64,000 nt of DNA, taken from the NCBI GenBank assembly GCA_963827475.1, contig CAWHAZ010000005.1, positions 244,259-308,258 of the forward strand. The letters run 5' to 3'. This DNA is from an uncultured Chloroflexia bacterium. Lineage in GTDB: Bacteria > Chloroflexota > Limnocylindria > QHBO01. Shown one piece after another: positions 42,301-48,300 of this stretch (the stretch's first letter is position 1; the number at the start of each line of letters is the position of its first letter). The position numbers are program-made.

Positions 42301-45300
42301 CATCGTTTCCTCCGTTGCGTCACAGCGTGGGCGGGAAACGCTTACCGCACCTTACTACCGGAGGCTCTTCCGCTGCCTCAAGAGCTCTCGGCCGACGCGT
42401 CATTTCAAACACCCCGTTGACATGACCTGCGGGGTCCGGGTGGCAGGGCTCGGCCCATCGGGGTAGGGTGGACGGGTCACCCGGTGGGTCGCCCGACGCC
42501 GGACCGTTCGAACCGTCCTTGAGGGAATTGCTGTGCTCGCCTCCCGTGACTCCCGCCTGCCCATCCGCCGTCGGCTGCTGACCATCGCCGTCTCCGTCAG
42601 CCTCCTGACCGGAAGCCTGGCGACAGGGTGGCCGTCCGCGGGGCCGGACACCGTCCGGGCGCTCAGCCGCGAACGTCGTCATCAGCCGAGCTGCTATGAC
42701 GGAGGGCAGCAACACGCGCGCCGCGACCTACACCGGCACGACTCGACGATGGAGTTCGTTCAAGCCGCGGCAAGCGACACCACGTAACGCTCACCGGCTG
42801 GTACACCGTCGACAGTACGCGAGTCCGACCGGCAACTGACGCGCGTTCTGGACCAGCGGAACGTCAGCCACCGTCGGCGTCTTTACGCGCTCCGATCCCG
42901 ATCCAGGCGGCGTACCTCCTGGCGAGACATCGCTCGGCGCGTGGCAGTCGGCTACCGCCTGCCGATCGCCTGGACTTCACACGCCAACGACGCCAATCCA
43001 TGACCGCGGCACGGCGGGCAAGGTCGATCGTCGACTCAATCCGTGGCCACCGGTCGGTGCGACCGACGGCAACAACGCTGCAGACGCCACTCAATCCGGC
43101 ACCATCGATCGATCTCGCTCCGGCAACGCCAACTTCTTCGAGGGCGCCAGGACCGGCCCCGACGCTGTCGAATACGACCGTCGGCCTTCCGAACGACGGC
43201 GGTTGCACTGACGACTGACGACAACAGCGCGGACTTCACTGCCGCGACCCCGAGCGCCCGCAACTCGTCGAGCGCGCTCCACTCGTGCACGCCGAGCGTG
43301 AGCCTGTCGATCAACGACGTCTCAGCGGCCGAAGGCAACTCGGGAACCAGCACGTTTGGCTTCACCGTCAGCCTGTCCGCCCCGCCGGTCCGGGCGGCGT
43401 GACATTCGACATCGCGACCGCCGACGGCAGCGCGATGATCGCCGACAACGACTACGTCGCGAACTCGCTGACCGGCCAGACGATTCCCGCGGGCAATTCG
43501 ACCTACAGTTCTCGCGTCACGGTCAACGGTGATACCGACGCTCGAGGGCGACGAGGTCTTCTTCGTCAACGTCACAACGTGACCGGCGCGACCATCGTCG
43601 ACGGCCAGGGCACGGGCACGATCATCGACGAGGAGACATGCGGCGCTGCCGGCGACGTTCATCCACGATGTCCAGGGCTCCGGCTCGACCACGCCGATCC
43701 CGGGCACCGTCGTTACGATCGAGGGAATCGTCGTCGGCGACTACCAGGGCACCGGCTCAGTTCGGCGGCTACTTCGTCCAGGAGGAGGATGCGGACGCCG
43801 ATGCCGACGCCGCTGACCTCCGAGGGCATCTTCGTCTTCAATACGTCGACACCCGTCGGCATCGGTGACGTCGTCCGCGTTACCGGCACAGCCGGGGAAT
43901 CCTTCGGCCTGACGCAGCTCTCGAGCGTGACCTCGCCGCCGTCTGCTCGACGGGCAGCTCCGTCTCGACCACGAACGTGACCCTGCCGGTTGCCGCCGTG
44001 AGTGACCTGGAGCGGTACGAAGGCATGCACGTCACCTTCACCCAGGAGCTGACCGTGACCGAGGTCTTCACCCTCGGCGCGGTTCGGCGAGGTCGCACTG
44101 TCCGTCGGTGGGCGGCTCGACAACCCGACCAACGAGGTTGCTCCGGGCGCGCCCGCCCAAGCGCTTCAGAACCTGAACGACCGGAGCAGGATCCTGCTCG
44201 ACGATGGCATCAACCACCCAGAACATCGATCCGACCCTCTACCCGCAGGGCGGCCTCAGCGCGACCAACACGCTTCGGGTCGGCGACACCCTGCCGAGCC
44301 TGACCGGCGTCCTCGAATTCCGGTTCGGCGTGTACCGCGTCCAGCCGGTGAGCTCGATCGAGTTCACGCACAGCAATCCGCGGCCGTTGGCGCCCGACCC
44401 TGTCGGCGGTGATGTGCAGGTGGCCGCCTTCAACGTCCTGAACTACTTCAACGGCAACGGCACCGGTCTCGACGGCGCGCCGGGTGGCTTCCCGACGGCT
44501 CGCGGGGCCAACAACCTCGCGGAGTTCAACCGCCAGCGGGACAAGATCATCAGCGCCATCACAGGACTCGACGCAGACGTGGTCGGCCTGATGGAGCTTG
44601 AGAACGACGACACCGATGCTGAGTTCGGCGCGATCGAGGATCTCGTCGCGGGCCTGAACGATGCGACGGCGCCGGGCACATGGGCATTCATCGATACCGG
44701 GATCGTCGGCGGGGATGCCATTCGCGTCGGGCTGATCTACCAGCCCGCCAACGTCGTGCCCGTCGGATCGCACGCGATCATCAATTCCAGCGTCGATCCG
44801 CGCTTTGTCGACACCCTGAACCGGCCATCGATCCTGCAGACGTTCGCCACAGCGTCGGGGACCCGCTTCAGCGTCCTGGTCAACCACCTGAAGTCGAAGA
44901 GCGCGGCTCCGCTTCCGACCACGTGTCCCGATCCCAGTTTCGACCCCAACTGTGACCAGGGCGACGGCCAGGGCTTCTGGAACGTGGCCCGGACGAATGC
45001 GGCCGAGGCCATCGTCGACTGGCTCGCCACCGACCCCACGGGGAGTGGCGATCCCGACTTCATCGTGATTGGCGACATGAACGCGTACGCGAAGGAGGAT
45101 CCGATCACGGTCTTCCGCAACGCGGGCTACGTCGACACGATCGACGAGCACCTCGAGGGCGAGGGCTATTCGTTCGTGTTCAATGGTCAGTCGGGCTACC
45201 TCGATCACGCGCTGGCGAGCCCGTCGCTCGCCGCGCAGGTGAACGGAGTCACCGAATGGCACATCAACGCCGACGAGCCGATCGCGCTCGACTACAACCT

Positions 45301-48300
45301 CGAATTCAAGTCGGCGGAGCACAGACGACCAGCTTCTACGACCCGCGACGCGTACCGGTCGTCGGACCACGACCCGGTGCTCGTCGGGCTCGAAATGGTG
45401 AGCGACGCCCCGACGATCGCCGTCACCGCGGGGATCTCGTGCGCTGTCGGCCGGGAATGGCGGCCGCTTCGCCCTCACGGTCGGTGACACCGACAACGCT
45501 GCCGGCAGCCTCACCCTCAGCCTGCAGGGCAACACCAACACCACGCTCGTTCCGAACAGCAGCATCGTTTTCGGCGGCTCGGGCGCGAACCGGACGGTGT
45601 CGATCGCCACGCGGCCAAGAGGACCGGCACGGCCGTGCTGACGATCGGCGTCAGCGACGGCACGACCACCACCACGGTCACCATCACCGTCCGGATCGGG
45701 ACCGGCGCGACACGAGACCCTGATGGGGACCTCGGGTGCCGACCTGATCCTCGGCGGCCAGGGCATCGACAGCATCTCCGGGCTCGCGGGAGCCGACGTG
45801 CTCTGTGGCGGGCAGGGGAATGACACCGCTCTCCGGCGGCGGGGGCAACGACGCCCTCGGCGGCGAGAAGGGCGCTGACACCCTGTCCGGCGGCGCCGAT
45901 GCCGATGCCTTCAGCGGCGGTCAGGGCGCCGATGTCAACACCGACTTCAACGCCGGCGACGGCGACACGTCCGACGGCACGTGAGTCTCCGCGCCGGCGA
46001 TCGGCCTCGCTGACGGCCCTGGGTCAGAACCAGCCCCTGCGGCGCATGAACCAGGCCAGGCCGATGACGACGACCAGCATGCCGATCAGCACGGCCGGGT
46101 AGCCGTACCGGAGCTCCAGCTCGGGCATGAAGAAGAAGTTCATGCCGTAGATGCCCGCGATGAGGGTGGGCACCATCAGCAGCACCGTGACCGCGGTCAG
46201 CCGCTTGACGATCTGGTTCAGGTTGTTGGTGGTCACCGACTCGTACGCGTCCAGCGTGGACGCGGTCAGGTCGCGGTAGAGGTCGAGCGAGTCGAGCACC
46301 CGGACGAGGTGGTCGTACAGGTCCTGGTAGTAGGGCAGCGCCTCGTCGTCGAGGATCTCGACCTCGCGGCGGAGAAGCTGGTTGGCGACGTCGCGCATCG
46401 GTCCCAGGATCCGCCGGAGCTCGAGCAGCTGGCGCTTCAGGCTGAGCACCTCGCGGAGCAGGACCGCGTTGCCGCTGCCGGCCAGGATCCGGTCCTCGAG
46501 GCTGTCGATCTCCTCCGAGATGCGGTCGAGGAGCGGGAAGTAGCCGTCCACGGTCGTGTCGAGGACGGCATACAGCAGCCAGCCGGCGGTGTGACCGATG
46601 GCCGAGGTCCGGTGCTGGAACCGTTCGCGCACGGCTTCGATCACCGGTGACGGGCCCCAGTGGACGCTGACCAGGAAGCCGCGGCCCGCGAACAGGTGGA
46701 GCTCCCCGAGGTCGAAGGCACGCAGCGGGTCGTCCGCCGGCATCGCCTCGTAGGCGACGACCACGTGGTGGCGCTCGTAGCGTGTCGACCTTTGGCCGTT
46801 GACGGCGCTTGCGGAGGTCCTCCACGGCAAGGGCGTGGAGCCCGAACTCCTGTTTCAGCAGCTCGAGGTCGGCGGCGGTCGGGTCGCCGATGTCGAGCCA
46901 GACCAGCGTGTTGCGTCGGCTGACGAGGCGGTCGATCCCCTCGAACGCGCTTTCGTCGAGCGTCTCGAGCTGGCCGTCGGGCATGAGGGCCAGCGCCAGC
47001 CGGGACGACTGATGGCCCGATGGCTTTGGCCTGACGACTGCTGGCCTGACGGCTGCGGGGTGGACTCGCCGGTCACGCGCCAGATCGTACCGGGGCGCCA
47101 CCGCGGCTGATGAGGTCCGCCGCGAGGTCCCGCGCCGCGGTGGATTCAAACGTCATCCGCAGGTCGGTGCCGTACCAGTGGGCCCACAGCGCGGGGCGGA
47201 CGCCGCTCAGCGACACGACCTCGCCGCGCTCGACGCGGCCGAGGAGCCCGGTGTCGTGGGCCGCCAGCGGGATCTGGGTGCCGTCGGCGAGTTCGATGGC
47301 GGCGGTGACCCGGCGTTCGCCAAGGTCCTCCGCCGGACGGAGCATCGCCGCCTCCTCGTCGAGATTTCGCCGCTGGCCGGCGACGGTCAGGGCGTGGCCG
47401 CTGACCCGGATCGCGATGTCCTCCGCCGGCCGGAGCGGGGCCGGTTGGGCGGGGGCCAGCCCGGCAGGCCCGGTGGTCCAGCGTCGGGATCCTTCGACCG
47501 CCGGGCGGAAGTATGGATACCCGATCCGCCCGCCAAGCCACAGGAGCGCGGCAAGCAGGACCATCAGGATCGGCCCGAGCCACAGCCGGTCGCGGATCAG
47601 GTTCGGGTCGTGCGCAATCGAGGCCTGGACGAGGATCCGCCCCCAGCCGGCCAGCGCCTGGACCCCGGGCCTCGCCACGAAGTCCTCCAACGCCTGCCCA
47701 TTGCGGATCTGGCGATGATCCTCGTCGAACTCGTTGATCGTCAGGTCCCCGATGTCCAACGGCTCGCTCCAGTGGACCTGCTCCCCGGCCCACTCCCCGG
47801 GGGCCACCGACGAGGGGTAGCCCAGCTGGACCAGGATCGCTCCTCCTCCGTCGCTGCCATGAGCGAGGTGGAGGAAGACGCCGGTCCCCGCCGCCAGCAC
47901 CCCGCGTTCGCAAATGTCCTCGAGGACGCAGGTCGGGACGGACTCGCCGTCGAGCTCGAGCGCCACGCGGACCAGGCTCCCCTCGGGCACGGCCGCCAGC
48001 TCGGCCACCGACTGGGCGGCGATGACCTGCTCATCCGGGTCGGGTGTGACCTCGAGGAGCACCCGCGCCGGGTCCAGGCCGCGAATATCCTCGCCCCGGC
48101 CAGCGAACAGCGCGGCAGCCGCTTCGCCGACGGGTCGCGTGACCATGCGCCCGACCACCGTCCGCGACAGCAGGCGAGGGGGATCGGCGCCCGTGGTCAC
48201 GACCGTCATGTCGGTGCCCGCCACCGTGTCTCGCACCAGCAGGCCGTAGGGCGGGGCCGCGACTCGCCCCGGGGCAGGGAAGGGGACGGTCATCGCCAGT

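Follow-up and report, generated by a model that had tools for sequence, protein, structure and literature searches.

The extracellular endonuclease gene at positions 42533 to 45984 is, judging from the sequences compared here, very probably an ordinary, functional-looking gene whose deposited consensus is badly wrong over ~3.4 kb, not a gene in decay. It lies in a stretch of 64,000 nucleotides of contig CAWHAZ010000005.1 from an uncultured Chloroflexia bacterium, which was analyzed as a whole and is referred to as the window. As deposited, the gene falls into at least 24 frame segments (at least 23 frame changes) around an unbroken 1.1-kb stretch. The indels are private to one assembly, overwhelmingly single inserted bases, and mostly outside homopolymers, and the repaired frame carries a signature of purifying selection despite them. 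Almost all of the frame breaks thus most likely arose as errors in the consensus of a long-read metagenome assembly. The main comparison was made with L082, a 1.23-Mb ENA metagenome contig of the same species that is syntenic with the window. The features discussed are as follows.

40097..42303, minus strand: type I phosphodiesterase/nucleotide pyrophosphatase (Pfam Phosphodiest; private 1-nt insertions at 41396 and 42066)
42533..45984, plus strand: ExeM/NucH-family extracellular endonuclease gene (Viterbi frame path, NF033681, Pfam, hybrid repair)
42533..42665, plus strand: GTG start and predicted signal peptide (MLASRDSRLPIRRRLLTIAVSVSLLTGSLA...), in a single frame in the window
42669..43215, plus strand: LTD coding zone with raw-read-like noise (alignment to L082; Pfam LTD)
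43217..43640, plus strand: Calx-beta coding part (Viterbi, L082 alignment, orthologs)
43574..43576, plus strand: sole lesion common to both assemblies; a Thr codon lacks its third base (GTC AAC GTC AC^ AAC GTG ACC)
43650..44214, plus strand: N-terminal part of the ExeM/NucH domain (five private 1-nt lesions)
44215..45318, plus strand: EEP core without window-side indel (within ORF 44204-45487)
45320..45346, plus strand: zone of a compensated pair (alignments to L001, L082, and L004)
45443..45984, plus strand: C-terminal Ig-like segment and RTX calcium-binding repeats (four private 1-nt lesions)
46024..46962, minus strand: CorA Mg2+ transporter (Pfam CorA; private 1-nt insertion at 46780)

Identity of the nuclease gene

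Once repaired, the gene forms a single open frame of ~1,130-1,135 codons. Its translation, in which the LTD part was repaired from L082 and the window frames were used elsewhere, matched the complete NF033681 profile (positions 1-546 of 546, residues 378-935) with 635.8 bits against a cutoff of 300, which bears out the ExeM/NucH-like family call of the initial annotation. Pfam identified LTD (47 bits), Calx-beta, Exo_endo_phos, and HemolysinCabind (86 bits) on the repaired protein. The EEP domain (PF03372) was also recognized, with 46 bits, on the as-deposited ORF 44204-45487, whose 427-aa product, P0001, is present in public databases. At the level of sequence, the SDHDP catalytic motif is found in the translation at ~45355-45370. 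Read by eye, the N-terminus MLASRDSRLPIRRRLLTIAVSVSLLTGSLA, with an RR motif followed by a hydrophobic stretch, is a putative signal peptide.

The protein shares the EEP fold and SDHDP with its family and, like many members, begins with a lamin-tail domain. The gene is thus an ordinary representative of a large family of secreted nucleases; database entries for its relatives, hundreds in number, bear the names "ExeM/NucH family extracellular endonuclease" or "predicted extracellular nuclease." The family includes ExeM of Shewanella oneidensis and NucH of Aeromonas hydrophila, and in Shewanella, ExeM degrades extracellular DNA for phosphate or nucleotide scavenging. By analogy, the window nuclease and the adjacent secreted phosphodiesterase would break down extracellular DNA for the same purpose. 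The protein is not ExeM proper: with 261 bits, its repaired form falls below the cutoff of 1300 set for the ExeM equivalog profile NF033680 (GlyGly-CTERM). The window protein adds Calx-beta and a C-terminal RTX block and ends in RTX repeats, whereas ExeM has a GlyGly-CTERM sorting signal instead. The gene further differs from the family in its deposited state of at least 24 frame pieces.

Distribution of the frame breaks

A codon-usage Viterbi path computed without homologs passed through frames +2, +1, +2, +1, +2, +3, +1, +3, +1, and +2 over positions 43217 to 44215. These nine changes are identical to those that the initial annotation had read in 43211-44210. The frameshift-aware homolog alignment that it had proposed, performed against eight orthologs, placed the last six at 43648-51, 43757, 43809, 43934, 44076-79, and 44209-18.

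The LTD zone was by far the noisiest part. Over its 547 nt, alignment to L082 revealed 30 mismatches, 47 insertions totaling 67 nt, and 8 deletions totaling 13 nt. These 55 indel events correspond to ~100 per kb, with an insertion density of ~10%, so the earlier count of at least five changes was true but a gross underestimate. Only 8 of the 46 single-base insertions in this alignment abut an identical base; they are therefore mostly non-homopolymer. Such a dominance of non-homopolymer insertions is unlike the classical Nanopore profile of homopolymer deletions.

In the Calx-beta part, the window-side lesions are -1 at 43380, -1 at 43507, +1 at 43515, +1 at 43543, and +1 at 43642. The compensating pair around LEGDEVFFVNVT, which had been placed at ~43540 and ~43575, consists of an extra C at 43543 and the loss of 1 nt at ~43574. 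Another compensated pair (43507 and 43515), absent from both the Viterbi path and the first list of changes, gives YSSRV in the window where orthologs have Y[TV]FSV. Within this part, orthologs L083, L084, and L085 read FFVNVTNVTGAT in one frame. Of the five private 1-nt lesions of 43650-44214, four are insertions (C at 43756 and 44078, G at 43809, and A at 44212), and one is the loss of an A at 43934.

The core, described initially as lacking a clear frame change, contains zero window-side indels relative to L082 (44215-45318). Immediately downstream, the compensated pair suspected near 45320-45350 proved real, with +2 (CA) at 45320 and +1 (G) at 45340 in alignments to L001, L082, and L004. 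It leaves the 427-aa ORF open and garbles ~8 residues just upstream of SDHDP. The four C-terminal changes, also correctly anticipated, were located against L001 and L082 at 45443 (+1), 45607 (-1), 45712 (+1), and 45830 (+1). Altogether, relative to L082, 17 window-side lesions lie outside the LTD zone and roughly 50 inside it.

Comparison with a same-species assembly

L082 aligned with window positions 33609 to 54750 at 96.6% identity. Indels occurred at 0.5-0.9 per kb in the flanks and rose to 13 per kb next to the core on both sides and to 100 per kb in 42669-43215. Zero indels in 1.1 kb between zones of 13 per kb is a patchiness that errors uniformly distributed per base would not give. The only two gaps in the core (window 44612 and 44622) are both on the L082 side.

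Each window frameshift between 43380 and 45830 coincides with a gap against L082. All window frameshifts but one are absent from L082, which is broken at other positions instead; an independent assembly of the same species therefore reads through the window lesions. The 349-aa ORF of L082 (P0188) passes unbroken through all five lesions of 43650-44214. Over the LTD zone, where L082 is far cleaner than the window, it translates as a canonical LTD (VVISQLYGGGSNTGATYTH.../LSGWSVQYASATGTG.../GTAGKV...). The frameshifts of L082 itself lie, in window-equivalent positions, in the signal-peptide part (42622), in the core (44614 and ~44900-44940), and just downstream of it (45515). Since L082 breaks in the core and the window in the LTD, which part appears intact depends on the assembly and not on the gene, and the idea of an intact catalytic core as preserved biology had to be abandoned. 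Hybrid repair, in which the state of either assembly was taken at each gap, gave one open frame over 42533-45984 (~1,135 codons) with one extra internal edit. The nuclease orthologs are unbroken in 11 of 12 other species.

For the window relative to L082, dN/dS values of 0.167 (shattered middle), 0.192 (core), and 0.298 (C-terminal part) were obtained. Of 61 mismatches, 39 fall at third codon positions of the repaired frame (p = 2.5e-6), and codon bias is kept, the homolog-free Viterbi being able to trace the frames. The stitched path over 43179-45980 contains no in-frame stops. Thus, the relaxed selection of a pseudogene, with dN/dS near 1, loss of codon bias, and nonsense codons, was not observed in the repaired frame. 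The dS between the two assemblies was about 0.2 at the nuclease locus and 0.03 for the gene next door.

Frameshifts in other genes of the window

Outside the nuclease gene, the window has no fewer than nine other single frameshifts, and both neighboring genes are among those affected. Apart from its two frameshifts, the phosphodiesterase is identical at 731 of 734 aa (99.6%) to an intact 734-aa L082 protein. The frameshift in CorA emerged from alignment, with frameshifts allowed, to the intact CorA of L001 (311 aa), and L082 carries a different private insertion in this gene (L082:12854). One frameshift each was found in panB, COX3, and asparagine synthase, with the Pfam domain split cleanly across two frames, and a beta-eliminating lyase is broken at 49730 in the window and intact in L082. 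Unrelated conserved genes of the same contig therefore show the breaks expected of consensus error. The initial annotation was right that the density in the nuclease gene is far above that in the rest of the window (13-100 versus about 0.15-0.9 per kb), yet the rest is not clean.

Origin of the error burst

The first of the two explanations in the initial annotation, a locally very poor assembly, agrees with the private indels, the insertion density of the LTD zone, the untouched dN/dS and codon bias, and the affected neighbors. The window would derive from a long-read MAG of the Flye type, probably Nanopore-only. Among the genomes of the collection, those most closely related to it are Microflora Danica MAGs, which are Nanopore-only Flye assemblies with one Medaka polishing round (PMC12313526), and frameshift-causing indels at low coverage are documented for long-read consensus sequences (PMC9262707). 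The difference in dS suggests unusually high polymorphism of the nuclease locus within the species. Reads of several alleles, or too few of one allele, would then probably have left an unpolished or chimeric consensus, and the core may simply have been well supported by reads. This cause of the local burst is deduced from sequence rather than from reads or coverage.

As in other long-read MAGs, private single-base indels fragment highly conserved genes, the sister assembly breaks elsewhere, and truncated gene calls result, such as the 427-aa P0001 and the 349-aa P0188. Whereas such errors are classically homopolymer-linked and thinly spread, those found here are mostly non-homopolymer and packed into 3.4 kb at 13-100 per kb. 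Dense, mostly non-homopolymer indels in one locus point to an unpolished or mixed-allele patch and not to ordinary residual error, and because the nuclease gene is the worst region in both assemblies, something locus-specific is involved. The insertion-dominated profile, the patchy density, the clustering in one gene of both assemblies, and the shared deletion at ~43574 count against plain assembly error.

The biological weight of these results is small, and their practical value is one of caution. The window record holds stretches of raw-read quality with up to 10% spurious insertions, on a background of about 0.15-0.5 frameshifts per kb that extends to housekeeping genes, and truncated products such as P0001 have already spread into public protein databases. 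Artefacts would inflate pseudogene counts, gene-loss inference, and protein-family analyses that draw on this genome or its sister assembly. Where reads are lacking, errors can be told from real lesions at low cost by setting two independent assemblies of the same species side by side.

Alternative explanations and the shared deletion

The second explanation offered initially, a recent indel-driven inactivation in this strain after which the gene gained dozens of small indels, is very unlikely. The breaks are truly present in the deposited sequence and concentrated in the nuclease gene (13-100 versus <=0.9 per kb in the flanks), the orthologous gene in L082 is broken too, and one lesion is common to both assemblies. 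However, all other lesions are private although the flanks are ~97-99% identical to L082; lesions of a genuine pseudogene would be expected in close relatives as well, and only that at ~43574 is shared. In addition, no mutational basis is known for 67 inserted bases within 547 nt accompanied by so few substitutions. The dN/dS of the shattered part (0.17) about equals that of the core (0.19), codon bias is kept, and neither nonsense codons nor larger deletions were found. Look-alike single-base insertions occur in CorA, panB, COX3, and the phosphodiesterase. Decay of the Mycobacterium leprae type resembles the window in its multiple frame-disrupting indels in a recognizable coding sequence and in the frameshifts of other genes. 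It differs in that the window gene lacks relaxed selection (dN/dS 0.17-0.30), nonsense codons, and larger deletions, that a genome of the same species has not inherited its lesions, and that elsewhere it is core housekeeping genes that are hit, by exactly one lesion each. That the secreted nuclease changes frame in a programmed or regulated way, for instance by phase variation or ribosomal frameshifting, is less probable still. The only points in favor of such changes are the presence of frame changes as such and a TGA in the old frame directly after 43574. Against this stand at least 23 changes of mixed sign, mostly away from homopolymers and simple repeats, and the sequence at 43574, read directly, has no slippery heptamer. 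The positions differ between the two same-species assemblies, and 11 of 12 orthologs do not have them; this lack of positional conservation effectively refutes the explanation.

A mixed case deserves more weight, although it too is unlikely: the ~43574 frameshift would be real in the species, truncating the protein after Calx-beta, and all other breaks would be assembly errors. The deletion is identical in the two assemblies, inside a ~120-nt tract that is itself identical between them, and it is the one internal edit of the hybrid repair that neither assembly could supply. Orthologs have the full Thr codon, and with the codon restored, the site would read GTCACNAACGTG. Two independent errors at the same base by chance are improbable (rough estimate, <0.1). 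On the other hand, the site lies within a 9-nt tandem near-repeat (AACGTCAC[N]AACGTGACC), where the same systematic error is plausible if one consensus pipeline made both assemblies, and both are demonstrably unreliable within this gene. Moreover, dN/dS downstream of ~43574 is 0.165 over 201 codons, so purifying selection acted on the nuclease part for nearly the whole time over which the two alleles diverged. If the deletion were real, the species would have a truly frameshifted ExeM/NucH gene encoding a secreted LTD-Calx-beta stub with the nuclease part lost, and the high allelic divergence would reflect diversifying or recombinational dynamics.

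Frame changes in the deposited nuclease gene

The nuclease gene and its parts lie as follows.

42533-45984 (+): nuclease gene
42669-43215: LTD zone
43216-44214: shattered middle
44215-45318: core (EEP catalytic)
45319-45990: C-terminal part

As deposited, region 42533-45984 (+) has ~68% G+C and holds many short ORFs and one long ORF, 44204-45487, which matches Pfam Exo_endo_phos; the last two short ORFs match RTX calcium-binding repeats. The 427-aa product of the long ORF is present verbatim in the public protein collection (P0001, from a 1,066,850-bp NCBI/ENA contig). Thus, the frame breaks belong to the deposited record and are no artefact of the window.

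Frames were assigned independently of homologs by a Viterbi path over seven states (three forward and three reverse frames plus non-coding), using a codon log-odds table trained on 22 long window ORFs of high GC3. From 43217 to 44215, the path was +2,+1,+2,+1,+2,+3,+1,+3,+1,+2, identical to the nine-change path that the initial annotation had read from 43211 to 44210. One frame was then kept from 44215 to 45440, with more changes up to 45981. When only forward frames and a lower switch cost were used, 24 segments (23 frame changes) were obtained at 42474-45980, and no in-frame stop was found within any of them.

Because plain tblastn with orthologs could not resolve frame segments of 30 to 150 nt, the Viterbi path was combined with our own frameshift-aware protein-to-DNA aligner, which confirmed the observed breaks and allowed indels to be typed. 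Eight orthologs from other species concurred on changes at 43648-51, 43757, 43809, 43934, 44076-79, and 44209-18, and the compensated pair suspected at 45320-45350 was seen at ~45318 and ~45346. The C-terminal lesions were typed against a JGI contig that carries a syntenic 605-aa ortholog followed by CorA (~90% DNA identity across the C-terminal part): +2 at 45320, +1 at 45340, +1 at 45443, -1 at 45607, +1 at 45712, and +1 at 45830, the last four being the changes previously noted at 45440-45830. For the N-terminal half, the best match in a JGI metagenome search had 58% identity, which supported the single-frame architecture and was too low to type indels. In one Microflora Danica MAG (MFD02840.bin.1.155), the ExeM/NucH part of the ortholog is broken by two +1 frameshifts, at ~9600 and ~10057 of its own sequence; the other 11 orthologs checked lack frameshifts.

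Comparison with a second assembly of the same species

A search with the stitched N-terminal translation retrieved P0188, a 349-aa protein that matches part of it at 93% identity and is encoded on a 1.23-Mb contig from an ENA metagenome (ERZ25039541, contig_18422; here L082). Gene order there is as in the window (ABC transporter, phosphodiesterase, nuclease, CorA, and so on). The L082 sequence aligned over its full 21,050 bases with window 33609-54750; identity was 96.6%, and the 95 gap openings were unevenly distributed.

Indels along the window/L082 alignment
8.8-kb flanks, left and right: 0.5 and 0.9 per kb
LTD, 42669-43215: 100 per kb
43216-44214: 13 per kb
Core, 44215-45318: 2 events in total, both on the L082 side
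45319-45990: 13 per kb

The initial description of indels far denser here than elsewhere was accurate (13 to 100 per kb versus 0.5 and 0.9 in the flanks), as was that of a core (44210-45330) with no clear frame change, since both of its indels are those of L082. For the LTD region, at least five changes had been counted; the breaks are present, but the count was far too low, as comparison with L082 gives 47 insertion events (67 nt) and 8 deletion events in the window. In L082, this zone translates as a textbook lamin-tail domain (…VVISQLYGGGSNTGATYTH…LSGWSVQYASATGTG…GTAGKV…); in the window, it is unreadable in whichever frame.

Each window frame change at 43380-45830 matches a gap relative to L082, so L082 is free of those changes, and its 349-aa ORF is uninterrupted across the five window breaks at 43756-44212. 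L082 has frame changes of its own at window-equivalent positions 42622, 42741, 42956, 43318, 43656-43703, 44614, ~44900-44940, and 45515, some of them within the "intact core" of the window. Selective preservation of this core was ruled out, because the L082 core is frameshifted and the L082 LTD zone is far cleaner than that of the window.

At L082 8850-12330, the nuclease gene is fragmented too, with ~10 to 12 frame changes of its own. It was called as three pieces, of 60 aa (Calx-beta), 349 aa, and 138 aa, and CorA was called at only 141 aa. Caution over the window record extends to the public L082 record.

Repair of the reading frame and selection on it

Wholesale adoption of the L082 gap states did not restore an open frame because L082 carries its own errors; thus, a choice at each gap was needed. 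A dynamic programme along the alignment took either assembly's state per gap, scoring codon usage only in one fixed frame, and yielded a single open frame at 42533-45984 of ~1,135 codons. One internal edit backed by neither assembly was required, a base added at 43576; two additional edits, at 45980 and 45984, were an end effect of the stop-codon penalty.

The protein scanned for domains was hand-stitched (1,129 aa), with the LTD part from L082 and the window frames elsewhere. Against NCBIfam NF033681 (ExeM/NucH family extracellular endonuclease), it scored 636 bits (cutoff, 300) along the full model (1-546/546), and Pfam LTD, Calx-beta, Exo_endo_phos, and HemolysinCabind were also found. By this HMM criterion, the gene belongs to the ExeM/NucH family, as the initial annotation had proposed. 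It differs from the ExeM equivalog, scoring 261 bits against a cutoff of 1300 and carrying RTX repeats where ExeM has GlyGly-CTERM.

In a gene decayed for long enough to gather dozens of indels, neutral substitution is expected. This was not seen between the window and L082. In the shattered middle, 39 of 61 mismatches were at the third codon position of the repaired frame (p = 2.5e-6), and Nei-Gojobori dN/dS was 0.167; the corresponding values were 56 of 89 and 0.192 for the core and 37 of 67 and 0.298 for the C-terminal part. Constraint on the shattered parts equals that on the "intact" part. The nuclease locus (42381-45990) is the most diverged stretch of the 21-kb same-species alignment (dS, 0.17-0.24, against 0.028 for the adjoining phosphodiesterase and 0.06-0.15 for genes to the right), which points to old alleles or to recombination in a gene for a secreted protein.

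Frameshifts elsewhere in the window

The phosphodiesterase at 40097-42303 (-) is identical to an intact 734-aa L082 protein at 731 of 734 aa, yet it has 1-nt insertions at 41396 and 42066. Judged against the intact CorA of the JGI contig, CorA has one private 1-nt insertion per assembly, at different sites (46780 in the window). Beyond the range covered by L082, the Viterbi path switched frame on the same strand at more sites that lack a nearby stop codon, and three of these switches cleanly split single Pfam domains.

Single frameshifts in other window genes
Asparagine synthase, ~6765: GATase_7 split 1-84 / 87-122
Unannotated gene, ~7879: single frameshift
panB, ~32859: Pantoate_transf split 3-185 / 187-259
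Gene near 33.6 kb, ~33589-33712: single frameshift
Beta-eliminating lyase, 49730: single frameshift
Cytochrome oxidase subunit III, ~60332: COX3 split 78-135 / 141-256

The window background is ~0.15-0.5 frameshifts per kb, and every one typed against L082 is a 1-nt insertion in the window. Asparagine synthase, panB, and COX3 are housekeeping genes, and each has exactly one lesion, which is the signature of consensus error and not of genome decay.

Assembly error or gene decay

On these comparisons, the gene is an ordinary ExeM/NucH-type nuclease, predicted to be secreted, whose shattered state is very probably that of the assembly, because the lesions are private, the repaired frame is under purifying selection, and like lesions occur in near and distant conserved genes. 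Of the two alternatives raised initially, a locally very poor assembly agrees with both results tested for it, the privacy of the lesions relative to L082 and the recurrence of such errors in conserved genes unrelated to the nuclease. Recent indel-driven inactivation of a secreted nuclease is not supported, as lesion inheritance, relaxed selection, and nonsense codons were all tested as marks of a pseudogene and none was found. We know of no biological precedent for the lesion density of the LTD zone. Programmed frameshifting and phase variation were ruled out by unconserved positions and the lack of slippery or repeat contexts. An error-prone gene sequence was likewise ruled out, since 11 of 12 orthologs of other species are unbroken (among them those of 5 of 6 Microflora Danica Nanopore MAGs); thus, the problem is specific to the assemblies of this species. 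The initial finding is a correct observation of what is very probably an artefact.

The sole lesion common to both assemblies is a missing base at ~43574, which neither can repair. At ~43574-43576 (L082 ~9907), both read GTC AAC GTC AC^AAC GTG ACC, a 1-nt deletion in a Thr codon, and three orthologs from short-read assemblies have GT[CG] AC[GC] AA[CT] GTG (VNVTNV). The site is a 9-nt tandem near-repeat inside a ~120-nt tract identical between the window and L082. This deletion may be a systematic consensus error, provided that one pipeline made both assemblies, which is an assumption. We consider a real frameshift, which would cut the nuclease off from its predicted signal peptide, improbable: the low dN/dS downstream (0.165 across 201 codons) speaks against an old lesion, although it leaves room for a recent one.

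As for the local burst of consensus errors, divergence at the nuclease locus in the metagenome could have brought several alleles into the read pile-up, and we think that the consensus there was probably built from few or mixed reads, without effective polishing. The L082 contig name is Flye-style. Relatives in the genome collection are all at ≤73% identity, the closest being Microflora Danica MAGs, for which Nanopore reads alone were assembled in Flye, with a single Medaka round (PMC12313526). In data of this type, frameshifts caused by indels have been documented where coverage is modest (PMC9262707). By analogy with these relatives, Nanopore-type consensus error is a candidate source of the window lesions. 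Of 46 single-base insertions, only 8 are next to an identical base. Classical Nanopore homopolymer error was thus ruled out as the sole cause; the spurious bases mostly do not extend homopolymers, which counts against a simple version of Nanopore error.

Other features of the window

Just upstream of CorA, the window has a 29-nt insertion relative to L082 (47013-47041, TGGCCCGATGGCTTTGGCCTGACGACTGC); duplication and assembly error are both candidate explanations. A block at ~14000-23000 has lower G+C (0.61-0.64 versus ~0.70 elsewhere) and may be a horizontally acquired region. The phosphodiesterase, a type I phosphodiesterase / nucleotide pyrophosphatase, and the nuclease (40097-45984), both predicted to be secreted, are divergent neighbours in an arrangement kept in L082, and the pair plausibly serves in scavenging extracellular DNA and phosphate.
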